A stretch of DNA of 64,000 nt from a bacterium (lineage in GTDB: Bacteria; Patescibacteriota; Minisyncoccia; UBA6257; JAGOQP01). Position 1 is the first letter of the stretch. Every line of letters begins with the position of its first letter. Of the stretch, positions 1 to 49,500 are shown piece after piece. The notes beneath the pieces were generated by a model. The model made no database searches. It was not told the DNA's origin and was given only the letters and a program-made list of their open reading frames with translations. Made by a program: the position numbers and the translations under genes. The stretch covers positions 8,920-72,919 of the forward strand of contig JAKAHY010000002.1 of assembly GCA_021814695.1 (NCBI GenBank), in the 5' to 3' direction.

Positions 1-705
1 AAAATAATAACTATTGAAGATCCAATTGAATACCATCTGGAAGGGATAGAACAAACTCAAGTTGACGAAGAGGCGGGATATACGTTTGCCGGAGGTTTGC
101 GTTCGCTGATGAGACAGGACCCGGACGTAATACTCGTTGGTGAAATCAGAGACAGAGAAACTGCCGAGATATCTGTCCAAGCGGCTCTTACGGGACACTT
201 GGTCCTTTCAACTATTCACGCCAATGAAGCTTCCGGAGCCATTCCTCGGCTTTTGGATTTGGGAGTGAAAAATGTCAGTCTTGCTCCTGCGTTAAATCTT
301 TTGATTGCCCAACGTTTGGTGAGGCGTTTGTGCAAATATTGTAAAACGGAATCCGAAATATCCGATGAATTAAGAAAAAATATCGAAACTTTTGTAAATG
401 CAATGCCCGATAGAGTCGATAAAAAACATTATCTGGAGAACATGAAGACGTACAAAGTGGTCGGGTGTGAAAAATGCAACATGACCGGATATAAAGGCAG
501 GGTTGGAATTTATGAATTATTGGAGATAAGCAAAAAAATGCAGGACATGATAGTCCAAGGTTCGGGTCAGCTGGCGATAGAAGAGGAGATAAAAAATACC
601 GATTTTGTAAACGTGCAGCAGGATGGGGTATTGAAATTTATTTCGGGAATAACCACTCTTGAAGAAGTTGAAGGGGTGGCGGGTAAAATAAACTGGAAGG
701 CATAA
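1..705 (+). CDS. Type II/IV secretion ATPase (GspE/PilB family), C-terminal part; gene starts upstream of window
   Basis: Frame-1 translation from nt 1 reads KIITIEDPIEYHLEG...RQDPDVILVGEIRDRETAE...LTGHLVLSTIHAN (GspE Asp/His boxes) plus a C-terminal tetracysteine CKYC...CEKC motif; no start codon in window. Confidence 0.85.
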   Translation, partial: KIITIEDPIEYHLEGIEQTQVDEEAGYTFAGGLRSLMRQDPDVILVGEIRDRETAEISVQAALTGHLVLSTIHANEASGAIPRLLDLGVKNVSLAPALNLLIAQRLVRRLCKYCKTESEISDELRKNIETFVNAMPDRVDKKHYLENMKTYKVVGCEKCNMTGYKGRVGIYELLEISKKMQDMIVQGSGQLAIEEEIKNTDFVNVQQDGVLKFISGITTLEEVEGVAGKINWKA

Positions 706-2290: not shown

Positions 2291-2530
2291 CTAAACTAAA
2301 TGCTTGTTTCTAAAAGCTATTCCCGAACCACTTTTCAGATATTTTTCAAAGTTGATCGCCTGTTCCTTGTTATGAAAAGTGCAGTGCCAAGCAATAATAA
2401 ATGGCGCTCTACTTGAGCTATATTTGGAACCATAACTATTATGTTCCAATAGTCTTTTCTTAATATCAATTGTGATGCCCGTATAGAAACTCCCATCTTT
2501 TAAACTGCGAAGAATATAGACAAAATACAT
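2291..2530 (-). CDS. GIY-YIG nuclease family protein (small, stand-alone)
   Basis: MYFVYILRSLKDGSFYTGITIDIKKRLLEHN matches the GIY-YIG motif arrangement; 79 aa. Confidence 0.8.
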   Translation of the reverse strand: MYFVYILRSLKDGSFYTGITIDIKKRLLEHNSYGSKYSSSRAPFIIAWHCTFHNKEQAINFEKYLKSGSGIAFRNKHLV

Positions 2531-2596
2531 ATTATCTATAATTATATGGCCCTCCTTCGCATAAAGCTACGGAGGACTCACTACTCGCACCATAAA

Positions 2597-2622
2597 ACTC
2601 CCCAGATGGGGAGTTTTATTGC
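2597..2622 (-). terminator. Rho-independent terminator of the tmRNA
   Basis: Minus strand AAAACTCCCCAtctGGGGAGTTTTAT. Confidence 0.55.
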
Positions 2623-2672
2623 AATGCTTCTTGTGCAAGGAGTGCTTGCACTACGAAGCCTTGGCGAAGTAG

Positions 2673-2988
2673 TGGAGATGGCGAGAGTTGAACTCGCGTC
2701 CAGAAAGAGGGATTGAAAGCGTCTACGGGCGTATCTTCTTTTGGAAGCTGATTTGCTTTCTGATTGTCCCTACGGATACGAAAGCGCTTTCCGTGGGTAA
2801 GCCTCAAATATAACACCGGCGATTTCCCCATGAGACATCGGGAGCCGATGGCTTACGCACGAACTAAAAAGTTCTTAAGCGTATGCAAGTGCTACATTTC
2901 TGTTAGCAGATTTGTTTTGGCGGATTTACAAGTCGCCGCTTGACCCGCAACTTTCAAAGAACTCTATCTGTCAAAGCCCAGCATCCCC
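2673..2988 (-). ncRNA. ssrA: tmRNA (SsrA), about 316 nt, encoding the tag ANRNVALAYA*
   Basis: 5' GGGGAUG pairs with 3' CAUCUCC-A and includes the G3·U Ala identity pair. T-arm is GCGAG-TTCAACT-CTCGC. 5' domain reads CUGGGCUUUGACAG. Tag ORF is GCU AAC AGA AAU GUA GCA CUU GCA UAC GCU UAA, followed by the hairpin GAACUuuuuaGUUC. It lies immediately 3' of smpB. Confidence 0.85.
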
Positions 2989-3426: not shown

Positions 3427-3470
3427 CTGTTTATTTATGATAGTGCCTTGTGGGATTTTTTTGCAAGCGA

Positions 3471-3481
3471 TGTGATATAAT
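3471..3481 (+). promoter_or_regulatory. Extended -10 promoter TGTGATATAAT, copy 1 of 4 of a shared motif
   Basis: ttgcaagcgaTGTGATATAATgaaacaaataaaaaactATG, nearly identical to the motifs at 5688, 8367 and 52583. Confidence 0.45.
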
Positions 3482-3498
3482 GAAACAAATAAAAAACT

Positions 3499-5643
3499 AT
3501 GAAAAAATCTTCATTAATCGTGGTCATTTTGCTTGTTGTGGCAAGCGTAGGAATGACCGTCATCTTTTCAAATCAAGTGTCGATAAAGGGATTTCTATCG
3601 AGCGTTTATTCTACTGCATCAGGCAGAAATCATATACAGCTGGCAAACGCTCAGTCCTTGGGACAGGGGGTTGTAGTTTTTAAAGCGCAATTTGGCCATT
3701 TGGAAGCAACCGGCCAAGTTGTCTCCGGTATTTCCGGACTAGCGGGGCTGCCGGTGACAAAATTTGTTCCCGACAGAGACCTTTCGGATTCTGAAAAAAA
3801 GCAGGTTGAAGTAAACATCACCGAAGAGAACACCGTTTTCGGATTTATTGTGGCAAAAAACGTTTCATTAGGGCAGGGAATCGGTTTTAACATTCCCCAA
3901 GGAGAAGTTTATAACTACGGTTTTTATGTGAATTCCGACATCCTTCCTCAAGGATGGACATATAACTCTTCTTGCGTAGAGACGGGAGGAAATATTAAAT
4001 TATCTGCCGGCCAACAAAGCGAATGCACGATAGGTTTTTATCTGAAACCAACGCCTGCGCCGGTTACTCCTCCCGCTTCGACGTCCACTCCCGTCTCACC
4101 TCAGGAAGGAGCGTCAGGTACCGTTATTAGTGAAGATTCCGGTTCTGGATCGCTGCAGTTTGTAAAAAATATTTTGGACTTAAGTACGGGGTGGAAAAAC
4201 CCCGGATCGGATAAAATATTGGACGCAAAAATCGTTGAATTATACGGAAAGAAATTTCTTATTGTTTCGACTCAAAACAAACATTTGCTTGTTTACGATG
4301 CTTCAAACCAGTTTTCGCCGGTTCTTTTGAAAGATAATGATTTATCAGGCAGTAACGTGTCGGCGTTTTATCTTGTGGTTTTAGATAATTTCAATTACGT
4401 ATTTGCCTGGGGAGGAAACTCTGCCAACTACGGATCTTTTAAGATTGAACAAGACGGATCTGCGTCTCTGGTAAAAAGTTACAAACCTGACCAATATAGC
4501 GTTACTCAACCGAATTTGGTTTTCGGGTTGTTTAGAGGGTTAGACGGTAAAGCGTATGGATTTGGAGGGAACGGGGGCGATGGATGGCTAACTATTTATG
4601 ACGTGTCCGATCCGGCAAACATCAGCGAAATTGGATCATATCAAGATGGCTTAGTCGGGAATCACTGCGGCAATTATGGTCTGATTGGATTGGACAGGCC
4701 GCTTCAATGGAATACTTCTCAACAAGGGAACAAGCTTTATCTGGTAACTCATGCGGACCAGTGCGTCCAGCGGCTGCATACTTCCGGAGACGCCAGAATT
4801 TATATTTTTGACGTTTCTGATCCAAAAAATCCGCAGCTTTCCCATCAATATGAGCTTTCCGGTTCTTTTAACCACATACCTTCGGACGCGACTAAGGCCG
4901 AACAGACATTTCTTTTTGGCGGGATCGCCGACATTGCCGTTGATTCAAATTCGGGTAAGGTTTTTGATTTTTACAGGACGGTTTTTGATTGGCAGGGGCC
5001 ATCCTGGTCTCAGATAGCAAACATAGTGCATGGTACTTTGTTTAGATACAGAACCGGACTGGTCACTCTTTCACTGCAATCGGACGGTTCTCTAAAAGAA
5101 TTGTCGCGGGCTTTATTGTGCGAACAAAAGGGCCCAATGTATGATGGTGGCGGTCCGCAATATTATCGATGCGGCGACGTGGATGGAAACGACAAAAATA
5201 CCCAAGGCGGATATGATTATTCGGCAAGAAATTCTCAACAAAATTACAACGGAGTTTTTCTCCTCAGTGGGCCGGGAAATAGCGGTCAGGTGGGCTTACT
5301 AAGGAGTGATAATAGTTTTGTTGTCATTCCCGATACCGCCGGAGAGATGACTAAATTTAAGACGGCTATTAAAGATTCATCTTATTATTCGAATATCTAT
5401 AATCCCGCTATCAATGGTGTTGTGACCCAGGTTGACAGTAAAACATTTGCCATCTATCAATTTGATAGTTATTCGTTAAGCGTCGTTAAGGTTTTGTTGT
5501 CGCAATCTCTTGTGGGGGGATCGAAAAATCCCTCTCCTCCAGTGACCGGAGTTGCGCCTTCGGCAAACGTACCACTAACATCACCCGCATTTTCATTTAA
5601 TGCGCTCCTGAACATCTTCAGAAGGATACTTAACAACTACTAA
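3499..5643 (+). CDS. Cell-surface protein, paralog A: N-terminal signal-anchor, P/T-rich linker, LVIVD-like beta-propeller repeats, conserved C-terminal tail
   Basis: Repeats of the type LTIYDVSDPANISEIGSY and IYIFDVSDPKNPQLSHQY; N-terminal TM MKKSSLIVVILLVVASVGMTVIF; C-terminus ...SPAFSFNALLNIFRRILNNY. Confidence 0.8.
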   Translation: MKKSSLIVVILLVVASVGMTVIFSNQVSIKGFLSSVYSTASGRNHIQLANAQSLGQGVVVFKAQFGHLEATGQVVSGISGLAGLPVTKFVPDRDLSDSEKKQVEVNITEENTVFGFIVAKNVSLGQGIGFNIPQGEVYNYGFYVNSDILPQGWTYNSSCVETGGNIKLSAGQQSECTIGFYLKPTPAPVTPPASTSTPVSPQEGASGTVISEDSGSGSLQFVKNILDLSTGWKNPGSDKILDAKIVELYGKKFLIVSTQNKHLLVYDASNQFSPVLLKDNDLSGSNVSAFYLVVLDNFNYVFAWGGNSANYGSFKIEQDGSASLVKSYKPDQYSVTQPNLVFGLFRGLDGKAYGFGGNGGDGWLTIYDVSDPANISEIGSYQDGLVGNHCGNYGLIGLDRPLQWNTSQQGNKLYLVTHADQCVQRLHTSGDARIYIFDVSDPKNPQLSHQYELSGSFNHIPSDATKAEQTFLFGGIADIAVDSNSGKVFDFYRTVFDWQGPSWSQIANIVHGTLFRYRTGLVTLSLQSDGSLKELSRALLCEQKGPMYDGGGPQYYRCGDVDGNDKNTQGGYDYSARNSQQNYNGVFLLSGPGNSGQVGLLRSDNSFVVIPDTAGEMTKFKTAIKDSSYYSNIYNPAINGVVTQVDSKTFAIYQFDSYSLSVVKVLLSQSLVGGSKNPSPPVTGVAPSANVPLTSPAFSFNALLNIFRRILNNY

Positions 5644-8333: not shown

Positions 8334-8359
8334 ATCCCCCTAGCTGGGGGATTTTTTTG
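8334..8359 (+). terminator. Rho-independent terminator
   Basis: ATCCCCCtagctGGGGGATttttttt. Confidence 0.7.
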
Positions 8360-8366
8360 CAAGCAA

Positions 8367-8377
8367 TGTGATATAAT
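8367..8377 (+). promoter_or_regulatory. Extended -10 promoter TGTGATATAAT (copy 3)
   Basis: tttttttgcaagcaaTGTGATATAATaaaacaaataaaaataaccATG. Confidence 0.45.
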
Positions 8378-8396
8378 AAAACAAATAAAAATAACC

Positions 8397-10580
8397 ATGA
8401 AAAAATATTCATTAATTGTGATTATCTTACTTGTTGTTGCAAGTATAGGGATTACCGCTATCTTTTCAAGTCAAGTGTCGATAACCGGATTTCTTTTGAG
8501 CGTTTACTCAACTGTTTCGGGGAGCAATCAAATACAGAGAGTAAATGCACAAACGACAGGCCAAGGAACCATATTATTCCAAGGCCAATTCGGTCATCTT
8601 GAATCGACCGGAAAGGTCACTACCGGAATTTCGGGCTTATCCGGACTTCCGGTGATGAAATTTGTTAAAGACCGTGACCTATCTAGCGATGAAAAAAATC
8701 AGATTAGAGTGGATGTTATTGAACATAACACTCCTTTTGAATTTGTAGTTGCAAAAAATATTTCGCTTGGAGAGGGTGTTAATTTTAATATTCCCGTAGG
8801 TTCGACATATAGATATAGTTTTTATGTTCACCCCGACTCGATTCCCTCCGGATGGGTTTATTATTCCGGTTGTTTAGAGACCGATGGGAATGTTTCGGTA
8901 CTGGCCGGTCAGCAAAGTACTTGCAGCATAGGATTTTATTTAAAGCCCGAAACAATCTCACCCCCTCCGGTCACATCAACATCTACGATCACGTCTACTC
9001 CTTCGGTAGGTGTTTCGGGAACTGTTGTCGGTGAAGATGCCAGCGCAGGATCGTTGCAGTTTGTAAAAAACGTTTTGGATTTAAGCTCACAAAGAAAGGG
9101 CATTATTTATGGAGTTTTGGACGCAAGAACCGTTAATTTGTATGGAAAAAATCTTCTGATAGTTGCTAGAGGTGGAGCTTACTCTGCTACCACTCCAACC
9201 TGGCATATGCTTGTTTATGATATAACCGATCCGCTTGCCCCGGTTCTTTTGAAGGATAATGATATGTCCGGAAGTGGCATAATCTATAGTTCTCCAATGA
9301 CCGGTTTGGCAGTGCTTGATGGCTTTAATTATGTATTTGTCCGTGGAAATGTCGGTTACGGTTCGTTTAAAATTAATCAGGACGGAACTGCGTCTCTTGT
9401 GAAAAGCTATAAATATTCTGAAGTTCAGCAGATACAGACAGATTTAATCAGGGGATTGTTCAACGGTCTGGATGGAAATATATACGGCTACGGAGGGTTT
9501 GTGCAGGATGGAGGACTCGTGCTTTATAACGTTTCCGATCCCGCTAATATTATTCAAGTTGGAACGTATACTAATGGTCTTGAACCAGCGATTGCCATCT
9601 ATGGACAAATTGGATTGAATCGCCAGAGCACTTGGGGCGTTGTTAAAGAAGGAGGCAAACTTTATCTTATTGCTCATGCGGACCAGTTGGTTCTGCGCCT
9701 TCATACGGATTATGATGGAATGATTTATGTTTTTGATGTGTCCAATCCGGCAAGTCCGCAGCTTTCACATATCTATAAAATGTCCAGCTCCTTTAATCAC
9801 CTTCCTTCCGATATGACTTCGTATGAGAAGATGTTTCTTTACGGAGGAGAAGCTAATATATCGGTTGATCCAATATCAAATAGAGTATTTGATTTTTACA
9901 GAACGGTTTTTGATTGGCAGGGACCCAATCAGCTTAAGATAAAAGACATTCCTAAAGGAGCCTTGTTTCGTTATAGAAATGGAATAGCCGTTCTTTCAAT
10001 AGGAATCGATGGTTCTTTGAAATCAAGTTCCAGTAACATATTATTGTGCGAAAGAATAGCCATTCAAGATAATGGGACGTCAGGCGAAGATAAATGTGAT
10101 ACAAAGAGTCCCGAAACGGTTGGGGGATATTATAGTTCCAGTCTTTATGGAAACAGGAATCCTCAAGAAAATTATAACGGAGTATTTCTTCTTGGCGACG
10201 TGAATAATGTCGGACATGTAGGGCTGTTAAAAAGCGATGGTAGTTTTGTTATCATACCCGATCCAACCGGAGAAATGCTTAAATTCAAATCTGTCTTGGC
10301 TGACCCGTCGTATTATTCCGATCCTGGTTTTCGTTCGTCTCCAATCAATGGCATTGTCACTCAAGTTGATAGCAAAACCTTTGCAATATTTCAGATTGAT
10401 AATTATTCCATAAGTGTTACAAAGCTAAATCTATCACAATCCATAACGAGCGTAACACAAAAATCTTCGCCACCTACCACAAATGCCCCTAGTTCATTAA
10501 ATACATCATCTCCTACTCAGACTCCATTTTCCTTCAGCTCGCTCCTGAGAATATTTCAGAGGGTGTTCAATAGTCAGTAA
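8397..10580 (+). CDS. Cell-surface protein, paralog C (close paralog of A)
   Basis: N-terminal 230 aa nearly collinear with paralog A; repeats VLYNVSDPANIIQVGTY and IYVFDVSNPASPQLSHIY; C-terminus ...TPFSFSSLLRIFQRVFNSQ. Confidence 0.8.
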   Translation: MKKYSLIVIILLVVASIGITAIFSSQVSITGFLLSVYSTVSGSNQIQRVNAQTTGQGTILFQGQFGHLESTGKVTTGISGLSGLPVMKFVKDRDLSSDEKNQIRVDVIEHNTPFEFVVAKNISLGEGVNFNIPVGSTYRYSFYVHPDSIPSGWVYYSGCLETDGNVSVLAGQQSTCSIGFYLKPETISPPPVTSTSTITSTPSVGVSGTVVGEDASAGSLQFVKNVLDLSSQRKGIIYGVLDARTVNLYGKNLLIVARGGAYSATTPTWHMLVYDITDPLAPVLLKDNDMSGSGIIYSSPMTGLAVLDGFNYVFVRGNVGYGSFKINQDGTASLVKSYKYSEVQQIQTDLIRGLFNGLDGNIYGYGGFVQDGGLVLYNVSDPANIIQVGTYTNGLEPAIAIYGQIGLNRQSTWGVVKEGGKLYLIAHADQLVLRLHTDYDGMIYVFDVSNPASPQLSHIYKMSSSFNHLPSDMTSYEKMFLYGGEANISVDPISNRVFDFYRTVFDWQGPNQLKIKDIPKGALFRYRNGIAVLSIGIDGSLKSSSSNILLCERIAIQDNGTSGEDKCDTKSPETVGGYYSSSLYGNRNPQENYNGVFLLGDVNNVGHVGLLKSDGSFVIIPDPTGEMLKFKSVLADPSYYSDPGFRSSPINGIVTQVDSKTFAIFQIDNYSISVTKLNLSQSITSVTQKSSPPTTNAPSSLNTSSPTQTPFSFSSLLRIFQRVFNSQ

Positions 10581-30227: not shown

Positions 30228-30299
30228 GCGGGTATCGTATAGCGGCTATTATACTTCCTTGCCAAGGAAGAGATACGGGTCCGACTCCCGTTACCCGCT
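30228..30299 (+). tRNA. tRNA-Gly (GCC)
   Basis: Acceptor GCGGGTA/TACCCGC; anticodon arm CTTCC-TTGCCAA-GGAAG; T-arm ACGGG-TCCGACT-CCCGT. Confidence 0.9.
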
Positions 30300-30302
30300 C
30301 AA

Positions 30303-30337
30303 AAACAAAAATTACCCAAACGGGTAATTTTTGTTTT
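30303..30337. terminator. Perfect 11-bp hairpin terminator after tRNA-Gly
   Basis: AAAAATTACCCaaaCGGGTAATTTTTgtttt. Confidence 0.6.
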
Positions 30338-30466
30338 GGGTGTTGACGGGGTAGGATGCGGGGTGGTCGAGGGGCTGCAAGCCCCTCGTGTTGGAAATTA
30401 TTCAAAACCGAGGGTTTTGAAGGAGCGAATATAATGAGCGACGTCCGATTTCCCGTTACCCGCTCA
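30336..30466 (+). repeat. tRNA-trailer structured element, copy E1, ending in a duplicate of the tRNA-Gly(GCC) 3' end
   Basis: GGGGTGGTCGAGGGGctgcaaGCCCCTCGTGTTGGAAATTA-TTCAAAACCgagGGTTTTGAAGGAG-CGAATATAATGAGCGACGTCCGATTTCCC followed by GTTACCCGCTCA (= tRNA 3' end). Confidence 0.6.
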
Positions 30467-30502
30467 AAAACAAAAAGCACCACAAGGGTGTTTTTTGTTT
30501 TC

Positions 30503-30650
30503 TGTCCGCCCGGAAGGGAGTCTCACGTCGCTCCGACATTGCGTCGGAGCTCCCAAGACACCCTCGGTTTCTTGACGCTCCTCCGGAGCTTTTTCCTACA
30601 CGGGAGATTAAGCATCTCCCGACCCCTCTCTATTCAATTCCTTGTTGACG
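30503..30650 (-). repeat. tRNA-trailer structured element, copy E2 (minus strand), fused to a duplicate of the tRNA-Lys 3' end
   Basis: Minus strand GGAATTGAATAGAGAG-GGGTCGGGAGATgcttaATCTCCCGTGTAGGAAAAAG-CTCCggaGGAG-CGTCAAGAAACCGAGGGTGTCTTGGGAG-CTCCGACgcaatGTCGGAG-CGACGTGAGACTCCC-TTCCGGGCGGACA. Confidence 0.6.
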
Positions 30651-30689
30651 AACAAAACAAAAAATATTCACAAAGGATATTTCTTATTT

Positions 30690-30826
30690 TGTCCGCCCGG
30701 AAGGGAATCTCACGTCGCTCCGACCTTGCGTCGGAGCTCCTTAAAACCATTCGGTTTTAATATTTCCTCCACGGAAAACCTTCGGTTTCCCGACCCCATC
30801 CGATTTGATTCCTTTACTGACGAATA
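30690..30826 (-). repeat. tRNA-trailer structured element, copy E3 (minus strand), fused to a second duplicate of the tRNA-Lys 3' end
   Basis: Minus strand GGAATCAAATCGGAT-GGGGTCGGGAAACCgaagGTTTTCCGTGGAGGAAATA-TTAAAACCgaatGGTTTTAA-GGAG-CTCCGACgcaagGTCGGAG-CGACGTGAGATTCCC-TTCCGGGCGGACA. Confidence 0.6.
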
Positions 30827-30865
30827 TAAAACAAAAAGCACCACAAGGGTGTTTTTTGTTTTCTG

Positions 30866-30938
30866 TCCGCCCGGAAGGGATCGAACCTTCGACCGTCTCC
30901 TTAAGAGGGAGCTGCTCTACCAGCTGAGCTACGGGCGG
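30866..30938 (-). tRNA. tRNA-Lys (CTT)
   Basis: Minus strand CCGCCCG-TA-GCTCAGCTGGTAGAGC-A-GCTCC-CTCTTAA-GGAGA-CGGTC-GAAGG-TTCGATC-CCTTC-CGGGCGG-A. Confidence 0.9.
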
Positions 30939-32149: not shown

Positions 32150-33643
32150 ATGGATACTAACCTGAAAATTCCCAAAGAAATTTTAGAAATAGTAGGAACG
32201 CTCGGAAAAGCGGGTTTTGAGGCATATCCGGTAGGAGGATGTGTTAGGGATTTACTTATTAAAAAAGAACCTAAAGATTGGGATGTTGCCACCAATGCCA
32301 GACCAGAGGAAATCCAAAAAATATTTCCGGATAGTGTTTATGAGAATAATTTTGGCACTGTTGGAATCAAAACCAGATCCGATGAATCATCCTTAAAAAT
32401 CGTTGAGGTTACTACATTCAGAATTGAAGGGGGGTATAGCGATAGCCGTCACCCGGATTTGGTTAAATTTGCGGACAATTTACAAGACGACCTTTCCAGG
32501 CGTGACTTTACAATAAATGCGCTTGCATTGGAAATTCAAAATGAAAATATCAGAAATAAAAATAGTAATCAAAAATTCAAAATTATTGATCCGTATGAAG
32601 GGGGGACGGATATAAAGAATAAAATCATTAAAGCCGTAGGAGACCCGAATAAAAGGTTTGGAGAGGATGCTTTAAGAATGCTTAGAGCTGTCAGACTTGC
32701 TTGTCAGCTTGAGTTTGATATAGAGAAAAAAACGGAAGAAGAGATAAGGGAAAATGCTCACCTACTCAAAAAAATATCTAAAGAAAGAATAAGGGATGAA
32801 TTTTCTAAAATCATAATGACCGATTATGCCGAGCGGGGAGTTCGAATGCTCCAAAATCTTGGATTGATGAAATTTATTATCCCCGAGTTAATTGAGGGCG
32901 TCGGCGTTGCACAAAATAAACACCATATTTATACGGTTTGGGAACATAACGTTTTGGCATTGGGATACTCTGTTGCCAAGAGATATTCGTTTGAAGTCAG
33001 ATTGGCATCTCTTTTGCACGATGTCGGCAAACCGAGAACAAAACAAGGAGAGGGGCCCGATTCCACTTTTTATCAGCATGAATATGTCGGGGCCAAGATG
33101 ACAAGAAAAATTTTGGAAGATCTTAAATTTCCAAAACACATTGTTGATTATGTAACTCATCTGGTTAAATCACATCTTTTTTATTACAATGTCGGCGAAG
33201 TAACCGAGGCCGGAGTCAGAAGATTTTTGGCCAGAGTTGGACCGGAAAATGTTGACGACCTTATAAAGGTCAGAGAGGCGGACAGAATCGGTTCGGGCGT
33301 CCCCAAAGCATTCCCTTATAAATTGAGACATCTCCTTTTTATGATAGACAAGGTTAGACGGGACCCGATTTCTCCAAAAATGCTTAAAATAAACGGCAAT
33401 GATTTGATGAAAATCCTATCAATCGATCCCGGACCAAAAATCGGCCACATTCTCAATGCTCTTTTGGAAGAAGTTATTGAAGACCCGGAAAAAAACTCAA
33501 AAAAATATCTGGAAAAAAGAGCCGGAGAGTTAAATCGGCTTTCTGTTAAAGAACTTGAAAATTTGAGAAAAAGAGCAGAGAATGCCAAAGAAGAATTTGA
33601 GACGGGTATTGAAAAGGAAATGAAGCGCAGACATCACGTTTAA
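32150..33643 (+). CDS. cca: CCA-adding tRNA nucleotidyltransferase with HD domain
   Basis: Pol-beta nucleotidyltransferase head GGCVRDLLIKKEPKDWDVAT; HD motif LLHDVGK. Confidence 0.9.
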   Translation: MDTNLKIPKEILEIVGTLGKAGFEAYPVGGCVRDLLIKKEPKDWDVATNARPEEIQKIFPDSVYENNFGTVGIKTRSDESSLKIVEVTTFRIEGGYSDSRHPDLVKFADNLQDDLSRRDFTINALALEIQNENIRNKNSNQKFKIIDPYEGGTDIKNKIIKAVGDPNKRFGEDALRMLRAVRLACQLEFDIEKKTEEEIRENAHLLKKISKERIRDEFSKIIMTDYAERGVRMLQNLGLMKFIIPELIEGVGVAQNKHHIYTVWEHNVLALGYSVAKRYSFEVRLASLLHDVGKPRTKQGEGPDSTFYQHEYVGAKMTRKILEDLKFPKHIVDYVTHLVKSHLFYYNVGEVTEAGVRRFLARVGPENVDDLIKVREADRIGSGVPKAFPYKLRHLLFMIDKVRRDPISPKMLKINGNDLMKILSIDPGPKIGHILNALLEEVIEDPEKNSKKYLEKRAGELNRLSVKELENLRKRAENAKEEFETGIEKEMKRRHHV

Positions 33644-35500: not shown

Positions 35501-35544
35501 CTAAAATAGAAATCCCATTCGGGATTTTTATTTTTGCTTGGACT

Positions 35545-35680
35545 CCGGAAATTGAATCAGAAGGGGTCGGGGAACCTGTGGTTCCCCGTGTAGGAAAAAG
35601 TCCGCCCTGGGCGGACGTCAAGAAACCGAGGGTGTTTTGGGAGGAGTGAAACGACGACGTGAGATTCCCGGCAGCCCGAC
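35545..35680 (+). repeat. tRNA-trailer structured element, copy E4, fused to a duplicate of the tRNA-Pro 3' end (GATTCCCGGCAGCCCGAC)
   Basis: GGAAATTGAATCAGAAG-GGGTCGGGGAACCtgtGGTTCCCCGTGTAGGAAAAAG-TCCGCCCtggGGCGGA-CGTCAAGAAACCGAGGGTGTTTTGGGAGGAGTGAAACGACGACGTGAGATTCCC-GGCAGCCCGAC. It is followed by a second copy of the tRNA flank and the first 16 nt of a further element (GGAATTGAATCGGAAG). Confidence 0.6.
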
Positions 35681-47819: not shown

Positions 47820-47832
47820 ATCAAAAAATAAT

Positions 47833-47960
47833 ATTTGAAAATATCCCGACAAGTGAGGGGATTTTGTATAGTCCTTCTTCGCATAAAGCTTCGAAGGACA
47901 CTTTTCGTCTGGCTTGCACTTCGTAGCTCGCCAGGGCGAAGAAGTGAGCGGGTAAGGGGA
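47833..47960. repeat. Direct repeat copy a (about 128 bp): tRNA-Gly(TCC) downstream flank plus the 16-nt tRNA 3' end
   Basis: Near-identical to 48061..48188 (offset 228 bp); ends in ..GTGAGCGGGTAAGGGGA, the reverse complement of the tRNA 3' end. Confidence 0.8.
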
Positions 47961-48061
47961 AGTCTTACGCTCACCCCCGACCCCCGCTTAAGAAACCTTC
48001 GGGTTTCTTACGTCCCTATTTTCCAACACGGGGGTTCGCATTCGACTCCCAAACTCACCCA
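47961..48061 (-). repeat. Divergent copy (E5) of the tRNA-trailer element between the two direct repeats
   Basis: Minus strand GGGAGTCGAATGCGAACCCCCGTGTTGGAAAATAGG-GACGTAAGAAACCcgaagGGTTTCTTAAG-CGGGGGTCGGGGGTGAGCGTAAGACTTCCCC followed by TTACCCGCTCA. Confidence 0.45.
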
Positions 48062-48188
48062 CAAAAAAATATCCCGACAAGTGAGGGGATTTTGTATAGT
48101 CCTTCTTCGCATAAAGCTTCGAAGGACACTTTTCGTCTGGCTTGCACTTCGTAGCTCGCCAGGGCGAAGAAGTGAGCGGGTAAGGGGA
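48061..48188. repeat. Direct repeat copy b (overlaps the 3' end of the intact tRNA-Gly(TCC))
   Basis: See copy a. Confidence 0.8.
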
Positions 48189-48245
48189 GTCGGACCCCTC
48201 TCATCAGCTTGGAAAGCTGAGGTAATACCGATATACGATACCCGC
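48175..48245 (-). tRNA. tRNA-Gly (TCC)
   Basis: Minus strand GCGGGTA-TC-GTAT..-TCAGC-TTTCCAA-GCTGA-TGAG-AGGGG-TCCGACT-CCCCT-TACCCGC-T. Confidence 0.85.
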
Positions 48246-48307
48246 TTAATGTGAATAAAGGTAACAAATTTTCTTGATTTTTTCAATAACTCAGGTAATC
48301 TGAGCGT

Positions 48308-48922
48308 ATGTTTTTGGACAGGTTCGATAGATTGCCTAAAAAAATTAGAAGGACCGCATGGGTTGTTATCGGATTGGTGGTTTTGATGTTGATTGCATAT
48401 TTGGCGTGGAGTTACTTCGGTTCCCATGTGCCGGGAGATTTCAACGAGGCCAGGATAGCGGCGTCCGTGGAAGCTAAAACGATTGCCGATACCCTGAAAG
48501 ATTCTCCTGAGAATCTTCAAAAAATACAACAACTTCAGGAAAAGTGGAAAGACGATCAGGCGCTGACACTTTTGGTTGCGGAGTTCCAAAAAAACCAGGC
48601 AGCCAGAGATGCATCGGTTAAACTTGCGGGAGAACTGGAAAGAATGGCTCAGGCCATTCCCGACATTCGTCCCAAAAAATCCGCCGAAAATGCTTTAGTT
48701 GCAATAACTACCGAAACTCAGTTGATTTATAAACTGGTCTCGTTTAATGATGATATGAGTCAGTTGCTTAAGTTGATGCAGGATAAAATTACGAATAAAA
48801 TCTACGGGGTGGATAAAGTAAATCAATTAGTGGATGCCATTAATTCCGAAGTCGATTCGATAAATCAGCTCAATAATCAGTTTGAAGATTATCTGAAAAC
48901 GTTTGACGGGTCGTTTAATTAA
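48308..48922 (+). CDS. Membrane-anchored coiled-coil hypothetical protein
   Basis: N-terminal TM RRTAWVVIGLVVLMLIAYLAW; helical remainder. Confidence 0.6.
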   Translation: MFLDRFDRLPKKIRRTAWVVIGLVVLMLIAYLAWSYFGSHVPGDFNEARIAASVEAKTIADTLKDSPENLQKIQQLQEKWKDDQALTLLVAEFQKNQAARDASVKLAGELERMAQAIPDIRPKKSAENALVAITTETQLIYKLVSFNDDMSQLLKLMQDKITNKIYGVDKVNQLVDAINSEVDSINQLNNQFEDYLKTFDGSFN

Positions 48923-49020: not shown

Positions 49021-49047
49021 AAAAAAATTGCCTAGCGCAATTTTTTT
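49021..49047. terminator. Hairpin terminator after tRNA-Ala
   Basis: AAAAAAATTGCctagcGCAATTTTTTT. Confidence 0.55.
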
Positions 49048-49054
49048 GTTATGA

Positions 49055-49184
49055 TGAATCAGGGTCGGTTTGAATATTTAGGGGTCGGGGTATTTGTAAA
49101 TACCCCGAGTAAGAAAATTTGAGAAACCGTGGGTTTCTCACGAACGAATGAAATGAGTGAGGTGAGATTCCGGTACGGTCCACA
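49055..49184 (+). repeat. tRNA-trailer structured element, copy E6, fused to a duplicate of the tRNA-Ala(TGC) 3' end
   Basis: GGTTTGAATATTTAG-GGGTCGGGGTATTTgtaAATACCCCGAGTAAGAAAAT-TTGAGAAACCgtgGGTTTCTCA-CGAACGAATGAAATGAGTGAG-GTGAGATTCC-GGTACGGTCCACA. Confidence 0.6.
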
Positions 49185-49188
49185 AAAT

Positions 49189-49500
49189 ATGAAAAAATCA
49201 GAATATCTTTTGAGAAGTTTTATAAATGCGGCTGGAGTATTTGTTTATGTAGCATTGATTGCCTGGCTGGGTTTTAACAGCAAAACAATTTTTGGAGAAG
49301 CTCCAAGTTTTATTGCGCCATTGTTTATGCTTCTTTTGTTTGTCGTGTCGGCTTGTATAACGGGCCTATTGGTCTTGGGTAAGCCAATTCTTATGTATTT
49401 GAACAATCAGAGAAGAGAGGCCATTGTTTTATTTTCGGTTACTCTTAGCTGGCTCGTATTGTTTTTGGCGATTATCGCGACTGCTCTTGCCTTAAGATAA
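49189..49500 (+). CDS. Small membrane protein (3 TM); the ORF track's longer ORF (49129) runs through the repeat element
   Basis: MKKSEYLLRSFINAAGVFVYVALIAWLGF... Confidence 0.55.
   Translation: MKKSEYLLRSFINAAGVFVYVALIAWLGFNSKTIFGEAPSFIAPLFMLLLFVVSACITGLLVLGKPILMYLNNQRREAIVLFSVTLSWLVLFLAIIATALALR

Follow-up and report, generated by a model that had tools for sequence, protein, structure and literature searches.

The tRNA-Gly(TCC) gene considered here lies in a 64,000-nt stretch of a Patescibacteria genome (contig JAKAHY010000002.1, positions 8,920 to 72,919), called the window below, and is followed by E5, a small non-coding element bracketed by two copies of the 3' end of the gene. All features of this locus are read on the minus strand, and positions are those of the window. 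The gene is complete and uninterrupted, and is placed at 48174/5-48245 by ARAGORN and by the Rfam model RF00005 (53.2 bits). It does not encode CCA, and its T loop, UCCGACU, is unusual. A repeat search of the region returns one exact direct repeat, in which 47838-47960 equals 48066-48188 over 123 nt (100% identical, spacing 228). Along the tRNA strand the order is tRNA nucleotides 1-59, the tRNA-proximal repeat copy R1 (48066-48188), a unique 105-nt body (48065 down to 47961) and the distal repeat copy R2 (47838-47960). R1 consists of tRNA nucleotides ~60-74 (48174-48188) and a 108-nt trailer (48066-48173), and R2 of a copy of the tRNA 3' end (47946-47960) and a copy of the trailer (47838-47945). 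The tRNA 3' end carried by each repeat copy is TCCCCTTACCCGCTC (14-15 nt); of the two copies, just the one at 48066-48188 leads on into a whole tRNA. R2 and the E5 body together make up a unit of 228 bp.

The trailer is rich in hairpins. Hairpin H1 (CACTTC...GAAGTG) occupies 48145-48174, with its second copy at 47917-47946, and hairpin H2 (GTCCTTC-GAAGCTTTATGCGAA-GAAGGAC) occupies 48099-48127, with its second copy at 47871-47899. Each repeat copy ends with a terminator-like hairpin and T run, AAAATCCCC...GGGATATTTT, read from the sequence at 48066-48093 and again at 47838-47865; a simple consensus terminator scan does not call the hairpin at 48066-48093.

A first-pass annotation of this DNA described two nearly identical 128-bp blocks, each ending with a 16-nt tRNA 3' end, and proposed self-alignment as a check. 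A 123-nt repeat that carries a tRNA end does exist, but the blocks were drawn 5 nt too long (47833-47837 is ATTTG, whereas 48061-48065 is ACAAA), and the tRNA portion is 14-15 nt and not 16, because ARAGORN and Rfam together place the gene at 48174/5-48245. That only the second block is joined to a complete tRNA is correct, and the flank hairpin quoted as an example is H2; the motifs that it cited for the divergent copy are present in the 105-nt body. Two open reading frames (ORFs), 47835-48254 and 48008-48589, had been set aside as artefacts; both run through the repeat and the tRNA, and the public contigs have no gene call there. The description as a 228-bp tandem duplication is imprecise. 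Only the 123-nt segment is doubled; the intervening 105 nt occur once at the locus and are part of a dispersed family. A simple tandem duplication was considered and rejected, since two whole head-to-tail units are not present and the layout is repeat, unique 105 nt, repeat. Tandem Repeats Finder makes no call at the locus because only 1.54 units are present.

The whole element E5, as delimited by a covariance model and by its fold, spans 47948-48070 and comprises a 5' arm, a core and a 3' arm, the last being the tRNA 3'-end copy inside R2. The motifs of the body (47961-48065) are read from the sequence. The body contains an inverted copy of the 3' half of the tRNA, with GTGGGTGAG at 48054-48062 and GGGAGTCGAA from 48050 downward, then CCCCCGTGTTGGAAAA (48019-48034), a hairpin called P3, AAGAAACC-CGAA-GGTTTCTT (47990-48009), a G-rich strand, GGGGGTCGGGGG (47974-47985), and a T-loop-like stretch, GTGAGCGTAAGACTT (47960-47974). 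In the 5' arm GGGAGTCGAA is the reverse complement of TTCGACTCCC; nucleotide 59 (N59), a C, matches the tRNA, and position 55 is T where the tRNA has C. GTGGGTGAG pairs with CTTACCCGC by way of two G.U pairs. The 3' arm agrees with tRNA-Gly(TCC) at 13/13 positions and the identity runs on for 109 nt. The predicted fold of E5 is a rod of -57.5 kcal/mol (z = -5.1 against shuffles).

The T loop UCCGACU is found in both tRNA-Gly genes of the window (48174-48245 and 30228-30300) and carries C at position 55, a place almost universally taken by U (pseudouridine). The tRNA-Gly(TCC) genes of the related metagenome-assembled genomes (MAGs) L032 and L105 have the normal loop UUCGAUU. The 3' arm of the element behind tRNA-Gly(GCC) copies the unusual GTCCGA, and the 5' arm of E5 corresponds to the normal TTCGA.

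The locus occurs in two forms. Ten public contigs carry the neighbouring 204-aa protein; L001 and L002 were compared, and the other eight were collapsed with L001 as similar places. L001 has the same filled structure as the window. In L002, which derives from another sample, the repeat is present once and the E5 body is lacking, so that exactly the 228-bp unit is missing. Its two flanks, of 1300 and 3000 nt, match the window with 0 mismatches. Apart from the unit, the sole difference is the stretch just upstream of the tRNA gene, where the 34 nt at 48246-48279 are replaced in L002 by an unrelated 106 nt (L002 1601-1706). These 34 nt presumably form the promoter region. Because this upstream stretch is replaced too, the locus exists as at least two haplotypes, distinguished by two neighbouring sites, and L002 is no plain deletion derivative. 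The contig names point to MEGAHIT with k = 141, which is longer than the 123-nt repeat. Since k exceeds the repeat and the flanks are identical, the unit is a recent gain or loss in a near-clonal population.

The allele pair also bears on a trivial origin, by replication slippage or as an assembly artefact. The 100% identity of the repeat copies and their short spacing would suit either. However, the 105 nt between the copies are not doubled and have homologs in elements elsewhere, the structure recurs in the independent k141 contig L001 although the repeat is shorter than k, and an alternative allele exists with perfect flanks. An origin of this kind is extremely improbable.

The genes around the locus are housekeeping genes, encoding a NUDIX protein, the 204-aa membrane protein, cytidine deaminase, a HIT protein, a DEAD helicase and ZnuABC, and their order is identical on both sides in the filled (L001) and empty (L002) alleles. 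No integrase, transposase, phage or island gene lies within ~6 kb on either side. The G+C content near the locus is 0.44-0.48 compared with 0.37-0.41, a rise that comes partly from the GC-rich repeat itself. The first-pass annotation had inferred a higher-GC gene islet and an integration hotspot, and had suggested a comparison with related genomes; that inference fails on the modest rise, the housekeeping neighbours, the common synteny and the missing integrase. Its idea of a recombination footprint survives in part, as the locus does vary (near-clonal L002 has one repeat copy and no E5), but neither allele adjoins an island. An attachment (att) site of an island or prophage was likewise rejected, because the tRNA-end repeat is there but an integrase or cargo is not, and gene content does not differ between L001 and L002. 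A group I or group II intron was rejected as well: the tRNA is uninterrupted and no intron model matches. The group I introns that have been reported from Patescibacteria tRNAs are located at position 35/36 (PMC13011429).

E5 is one copy of a family, defined in this analysis and termed here the tRNA-flank hairpin element. The first-pass annotation had called E5 a divergent copy of a tRNA-trailer element, and this agrees with its match to the covariance model and with the homologous elements elsewhere. The model, designated model R1, was built from 39 copies and recovers all six copies of the window, E5 at 27.1 bits (E = 6e-4 in 315 kb) and the other five at 67-94 bits. Besides E5 these are an element behind tRNA-Gly(GCC) (30329-30465, plus strand), two in tandem behind tRNA-Lys(CTT) (30692-30832 and 30505-30661, minus strand), one behind tRNA-Pro(CGG) (35528-35680, plus strand) and one behind tRNA-Ala(TGC) (49047-49183, plus strand). 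Five of the eight tRNA genes in the window carry one or two elements of 120-190 nt; tRNA-Arg(TCG), Ala(CGC) and Ser(TGA) carry none.

Beyond the window, a three-block pattern scan of 185,579 species genomes gave 36 stretches, 33 of them named for Patescibacteria lineages; of the other three, two come from unclassified MAGs ('bacterium') and one bears the label Bdellovibrionales. A metagenome scan with the 5' half of the element only gave at least 120 stretches; all metagenome-based counts are among the matches listed, and both scans were aimed at the canonical subtype. The covariance model finds 45 copies in the genome set and at least 103 in the metagenome set. Altogether there are at least 138 distinct copies, all in Patescibacteria MAGs and metagenomes, and the same three-block scan of viral contigs found no copy. 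Rfam 15, searched at the gathering threshold and at E up to 10, gives only tRNA and tmRNA (transfer-messenger RNA) matches and has no family for the element; an overlap of sroE with the Pro element is at chance level (24 bits against a gathering score of 51). The literature searched holds no description of the element, the closest paper being one on group I introns (PMC13011429).

The placement of the copies is strict. An ARAGORN-called tRNA gene lies at most 150 nt upstream on the same strand in 103 of the 138 distinct copies, with a median gap of 33 nt, and at least 17 amino-acid identities are represented. About 80-90% of copies are 25-100 nt behind a co-oriented tRNA gene. Twenty-six copies have no called tRNA in the 150 nt upstream, and ~12 of these either stand second or later in a tandem array or come after a tRNA-like 3' end missed by ARAGORN. 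The elements of L043, L046 and L080 follow such uncalled T-arm/acceptor ends, with tRNA-Asn-like ...GCGGAGC termini. Group I introns within tRNA-Asn are reported to defeat standard tools (PMC13011429), and the ends upstream of these three elements are probably intron-containing tRNA genes of the kind described there.

The element is built of a 5' arm, a hairpin core and a 3' arm, and the two arms pair into one long closing stem-loop. In the 5' arm, ...GGA-N-TCGAAC, the tRNA's T loop, its T-stem 3' strand and a variable portion of its acceptor strand are present in reverse complement. The usual core consists of GGGGTC, a hairpin called P2 (GGGG...CCCC), the stretch GTGKWGGAAA, an optional hairpin, P3 (AAACC-GNG-GGTTT) and an optional variable hairpin. 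The 3' arm is a T-loop-like stretch joined to a direct copy of tRNA nucleotides 60/61-73, which sometimes extends through the trailer to the terminator. Its T-loop-like part is specific to the subfamily and reads GTGAGAYT, a true GTTCGAWT, GGGTTC-TAG-minihairpin-GGANT, or TCGAGATCC.

The arms are copies of the neighbouring tRNA gene. The 3' arm agrees with tRNA nucleotides 61-73 at 13/13 positions in 61 copies and at 12/13 in 9. The variable N59 of the copy's own tRNA has its complement in the 5' arm in 91 of 98 copies and its match in the 3' arm in 40 of 68. Because N59 is tracked well by the 5' arm and poorly by the 3' arm, the inverted copy takes in the T loop, whereas the direct copy usually begins at nucleotide 60/61. 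CCA is found in the element copy where the tRNA gene encodes it and is missing where the gene lacks it; the gene or its primary transcript, rather than mature tRNA, therefore served as template.

P2 provides evidence for a folded form. Pairing in it reaches 99%, 5 of its 8 pairs show compensatory changes, and it contains 12 (+4) G.T pairs as against one A.C. This bias weakly indicates that the tRNA-sense strand is the one that folds, either as RNA or as single-stranded DNA. The strand count for P3 is too noisy for use. Covariation in the arms is no independent evidence of structure, because the arms copy different tRNAs, and the acceptor part of the closing stem is paired at 43-64%. A likeness of the element to the conserved regions of RNase P (GGAGGAAAGU, AGAAACCG) was dismissed as coincidental since the pairing partners differ.

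The heptamer GCGAAGC, with the variants GCGTAGC and GCGGAGC, recurs in the elements, for example in L044, L052, L057, L061, L064, L091 and L152. It stands at the positions of the optional hairpins, and in one subfamily within the T-loop copy, between nucleotides 56 and 57. The oligonucleotide d(GCGAAGC) forms an unusually stable DNA mini-hairpin, and its recurrence therefore raises the question of a single-stranded DNA form.

E5 departs from this plan in the order of its core. It matches the model, though weakly, it follows a co-oriented tRNA gene with an identical 3' arm, and it has an inverted 5' arm with the proper N59. Its core, however, is not in the canonical order: GGGGGTCGGGGG comes after P3 and not before it, so that the counterpart of the P2 helix is long-range. 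Near-identical blocks in this permuted order recur at L106 236-432, on a different metagenome contig and beside a different tRNA. Because L106 has the same permuted order, E5 is filed as a subtype and not as a product of random decay. The L106 element (236-452, plus strand) abuts, in opposite orientation, the 3' arm of a canonical element behind tRNA-Leu(TAA). It contains an insertion of ~90 nt of AT-rich sequence in one hairpin, and no tRNA lies upstream on its own strand.

The combination of tRNA-end repeats and an empty allele is reminiscent of site-specific integration, in which the tRNA-end copies would be attL and attR of an island, a prophage or a mini element moved in trans by a tyrosine integrase. 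Direct repeats of the tRNA 3' end do bracket the insert, the unit is present or absent between strains, and identity begins at the T loop/T stem junction, a known sublocation for integrase crossover. The same traits, together with an intact upstream tRNA, are common to the att sites of prophages, integrative and conjugative elements, islands and integrase-less cis-mobilisable elements. Yet here there are just 105 non-coding nucleotides between the repeats (the inserts of the family are 105-190 nt), no integrase is encoded in cis, and the surrounding ~6 kb and the order of genes in the empty allele are as described above. The repeat runs 108 nt past the tRNA. One family occurs at 17 or more amino-acid identities with ends that match each, which is unexpected for a sequence-specific integrase, and the inverted copy of the T loop and T stem in every element is left unexplained by att sites. 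Furthermore, no viral contig has the element, and near-identical cores are accompanied by unrelated spacers, so no replacement tRNA 3' flank is brought in. Integration of this type is very unlikely.

Several observations point to mobility of the core. Within one genome, cores at different tRNAs are 96% (Ser/Arg), 90% (Tyr/Asp) or 84% (Gly/Glu) identical, while the arms differ and match each tRNA. In pairs with near-identical cores (L011, L016) the spacer and terminator between tRNA and element are unrelated, and the moving unit would therefore extend roughly from TCGAAC to the T-loop-like stretch. The same unrelated spacers led to the rejection of an element that brings its own terminator or a replacement tRNA end. 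Among orthologous tRNAs, the element is present in some genomes and the site is empty in others. Tandem arrays are found at the tRNA-Lys locus of the window and in L031.

The repeats themselves are subject to recombination. At the tRNA-Lys locus of the window the outer repeats of 53 nt, composed of the tRNA 3' end and terminator, are 100% identical (30467-30519 and 30828-30880), whereas in strain L160 (3917-4765) they have diverged, and this contrast argues for gene conversion. One Lys element of L160 contains a breakpoint in its variable hairpin, at which identity drops from 100% to ~93%, and this hairpin is swapped for another. Long repeats are confined to a minority of the copies. The identity beyond the tRNA is longest at E5 (109 nt), followed by L014 (47 nt), L081 (44 nt), L088 and the distal Lys copy of the window (38 nt each), L040 (29 nt) and L011 (at least 26 nt). 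Homology of the trailer beyond the tRNA copy is seen in 14 of 68 copies.

The reading we favour, with a probability of about 0.55, is that E5 is a copy of an element that spreads non-autonomously by copy-and-paste and takes the template for its arms from the recipient tRNA gene; its repeats would then drive conversion, loss and array formation. Membership of the family, the build of the arms and the polymorphism between strains are established; the chemistry of insertion is a proposal and may be pictured as follows. The core would spread by copy-and-paste. Both ends, the left with TCGAAC and the right with GTTCGA or GTGAGA, are similar to the universal T loop, and pairing with any tRNA gene would be possible, followed by extension along it. 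Extension from N59 onward would turn the left end into the inverted arm, and extension from nucleotides 61-63 onward the right end into the direct arm. Extension might occasionally reach the terminator, producing a long repeat, so that direct repeats would range from 15 to ~120 nt. Because both arms would be newly synthesised on the recipient gene, each copy would be re-addressed to its own tRNA. Homologous recombination on the repeats could then act in three ways: gene conversion would keep the copies identical, unequal exchange would delete the unit, as in the empty allele L002, and it could also multiply the unit, as in the tRNA-Lys pair and the L031 array.

Fold-back synthesis from the terminator hairpin was also considered as the source of the inverted arm. 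It fits loci at which the tRNA is immediately followed by the terminator, such as L025 and L014, but not E5, where the 108-nt trailer intervenes.

A number of points weigh against templated copy-and-paste. As L002 is not a plain deletion derivative, it does not fix whether the unit was gained or lost. The clustering of neighbours at ~155 loci has yielded no enzyme or intermediate, and the step of template switching or primed synthesis is pure inference. The identical trailers of 108 nt at E5 are not predicted by simple arm templating and call for run-on synthesis or later conversion. The acting strand, and the choice between RNA and single-stranded DNA, depend on P2 alone. Mismatches in the arms have no strand bias (27 G.U vs 26 A.C among 44 distinct copies in alignment A4); the idea, taken from the window copies, that G.U pairs in the arms are a mark of a tRNA-strand RNA was dropped on this count. 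The membership of E5 appears weak in view of its low model score, and its subtype was met at one other locus, L106, in scans aimed at the canonical form. Some elements that come from different genomes but share a tRNA have an identity (Pro 0.80, Gln and Leu 0.78) above the background of 0.65. Finally, a perfect 3' arm in spite of mostly unrelated trailers looks like purifying selection.

The last two points belong equally to another explanation, that the element is a functional tRNA-linked non-coding RNA with a minihelix-like closing stem, co-transcribed with the tRNA or made just after it, and serving to mimic or regulate this tRNA or as its decoy. Processing of such an RNA would fall to RNase P, RNase Z and the CCA-adding enzyme, selection would keep the tRNA end, and the 228-bp polymorphism would be the gain or loss of a dispensable paralogue. 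The core is conserved across lineages labelled Paceibacterota, Colwellbacteria, Zambryskibacteria, Wolfebacteria and Saccharibacteria, P2 covaries and is almost fully paired, the orientation is always that of the tRNA, and no mobility protein is encoded nearby; to these are added the same-tRNA identity of up to 0.80 and the 61 perfect 3' arms beside mostly unrelated trailers. However, occupancy is patchy, and Arg(TCG), Ala(CGC) and Ser(TGA), empty in the window, are occupied anticodons in other genomes. Some copies are degenerate (E5, Gly(GCC)) and E5 is lost at the strain level. Near-identical cores are found at different tRNAs of one genome, and most copies lie behind a terminator and have no room for a promoter of their own. 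Besides, a minihelix mimic is expected to keep its stem, whereas the acceptor part is only 43-64% paired and the arms have no excess of G.U. A functional RNA is compatible with mobility, but as the explanation of the family it is rather doubtful.

The position of the elements after terminators suggests one more route, RNA-mediated spread. A reverse transcriptase would copy the element transcript and switch template at the T loop of a precursor tRNA. The 3' arm, together at times with the trailer as far as the terminator, would represent the 3' portion of that precursor, and the complementary DNA would recombine into the chromosome within this common segment. The direct copy ends a few nucleotides past the tRNA or at the T run of the terminator, as processed or primary transcripts would, CCA is copied only where the gene encodes it, and the 5' arm, being antisense to the tRNA 3' end, recalls a primer-binding site. 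A position after terminators is also chosen by group IIC introns. On the other hand, no reverse transcriptase gene is found near any copy, poly-A or another mark of retro-copying is not seen, and an inverted arm is not easily produced in this way. Group II introns are reported to be undetected in Patescibacteria (PMC13011429). Spread through RNA is unlikely.

The search for a protein partner was carried out on the neighbourhoods of the elements. The 852 ORFs within 3.5 kb of elements at ~155 loci were clustered; the largest clusters reach 8 loci at most and are housekeeping families, and the clustered neighbours give no reverse transcriptase, integrase or transposase signal.

Among known systems, the locus is most like a small structured repeat element, and what is unusual is that its terminal repeats are copied from the target. 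MITEs (miniature inverted-repeat transposable elements), REP/BIME, REPIN, Correia and RPE repeats and the PATEs of IS200/IS605 are likewise small, multi-copy, non-coding, intergenic stem-loops with inverted repeats, often next to terminators and variable in copy number between strains. In the present family, however, the terminal repeats differ from copy to copy with the target tRNA, position and orientation are strict, and no parent insertion sequence (IS) or RAYT-like gene was found. A MITE in the proper sense was rejected on these grounds: the arms change from one tRNA to another, the length of the duplicated segment is not fixed (~15 to 123 nt), and no transposase family is enriched nearby.

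Resemblance to tRNA-like domains and minihelix mimics (the tmRNA domain, the YrlA Y-RNA-like RNAs, mascRNA) lies in the paired ends with the 3' strands of acceptor and T stem, and in a larger structured insert that takes the place of the remaining tRNA. The element differs from them in copying the neighbouring tRNA and not a fixed identity, in the poor pairing of its acceptor part, and in its T loop, which is usually altered (GUGAGA, or split by a mini-hairpin) and drawn into the stem; moreover, the Rfam models of tRNA, tmRNA and mascRNA do not match the elements. The retroelements TRE3/TRE5 of Dictyostelium and Ty3, and the group IIC introns, similarly occupy a fixed short distance from tRNA genes or sites after terminators, at many tRNA genes. 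The present element, in contrast, is ~130 nt long, lacks a reverse transcriptase, intron domains and an RNA polymerase III context, and has flanks that are tRNA copies. The omega RNAs of TnpB and IscB and the bridge RNA of IS110 combine a structured scaffold with a short, site-dependent stretch that matches the site. Unlike these, the element has no TnpB, IscB or IS110 gene in or near its copies, its scaffold is unrelated (no Rfam match), and the matching stretch is always the tRNA 3' end.

It is possible, though we put this forward tentatively, that the family represents a new kind of genetic element, either a protein-less mobile unit that re-addresses itself by templating on the target, or a class of minihelix-mimic RNAs, one per tRNA. 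In the first case a unit recognising the T loop would have both arms re-synthesised at each insertion by host replication and repair or by an as yet unfound enzyme. In the second, the genome-reduced Patescibacteria would keep one minihelix-mimic RNA next to most of their tRNA genes.

The genomes of Patescibacteria are among the smallest of bacteria, yet the family recurs across the phylum. If it is mobile, it would show how any tRNA gene can be targeted with no sequence-specific integrase involved, and would give rise to tRNA-end repeats that mimic the att sites of islands. If it is functional, it would constitute an unrecognised layer of tRNA biology in a major branch of the bacteria, most of it uncultured. 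Under both readings, the system is seen in action at the tRNA-Gly(TCC) locus, with filled and empty alleles in one population. There are practical consequences as well, namely spurious ORFs, attL/attR sites falsely called at tRNA genes, indels between strains and, beside tRNA genes in MAGs, possible breaks in the assembly.

The element behind tRNA-Ala(TGC) adjoins a coding region (49129-49500) and has no terminator behind it. Its 3' arm ends ~5 nt before an ATG at ~49188, and the public gene call starts at a GTG inside the element (49129). This GTG start is probably mis-called. The tRNA-rich stretch of the window also contains the gene of a CCA-adding enzyme (32150-33643; PolyA_pol, HD and tRNA_NucTran2_2 domains), and CCA is not encoded by the six tRNA genes of the window whose 3' ends were read (both Gly, Lys, Pro, Ala-TGC and Arg).

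The trailer of tRNA-Gly(TCC) has a relative at the tmRNA gene of the window. Its motif is absent from every other fetched locus, but the tmRNA trailer (2530-2680, minus strand, just downstream of the tmRNA gene at 2672-2988) shares two hairpin modules with it, H1 with a compensatory change in the stem and H2 with the conserved loop GAAGCTTTATGCGAA and a covarying stem. The H1/H2 trailer is a second, apparently species-specific module behind tRNA-like genes. The tag peptide predicted by ARAGORN for this tmRNA, EAYPRKALSYP*, is without the usual ...ALAA-type end, and is either an unusual tag or a wrong prediction. Elsewhere in the window two paralogous gene blocks, 3449-5000 and 8345-9925, lie ~4.9 kb apart and are 70-94% identical, with near-identical upstream regions included.

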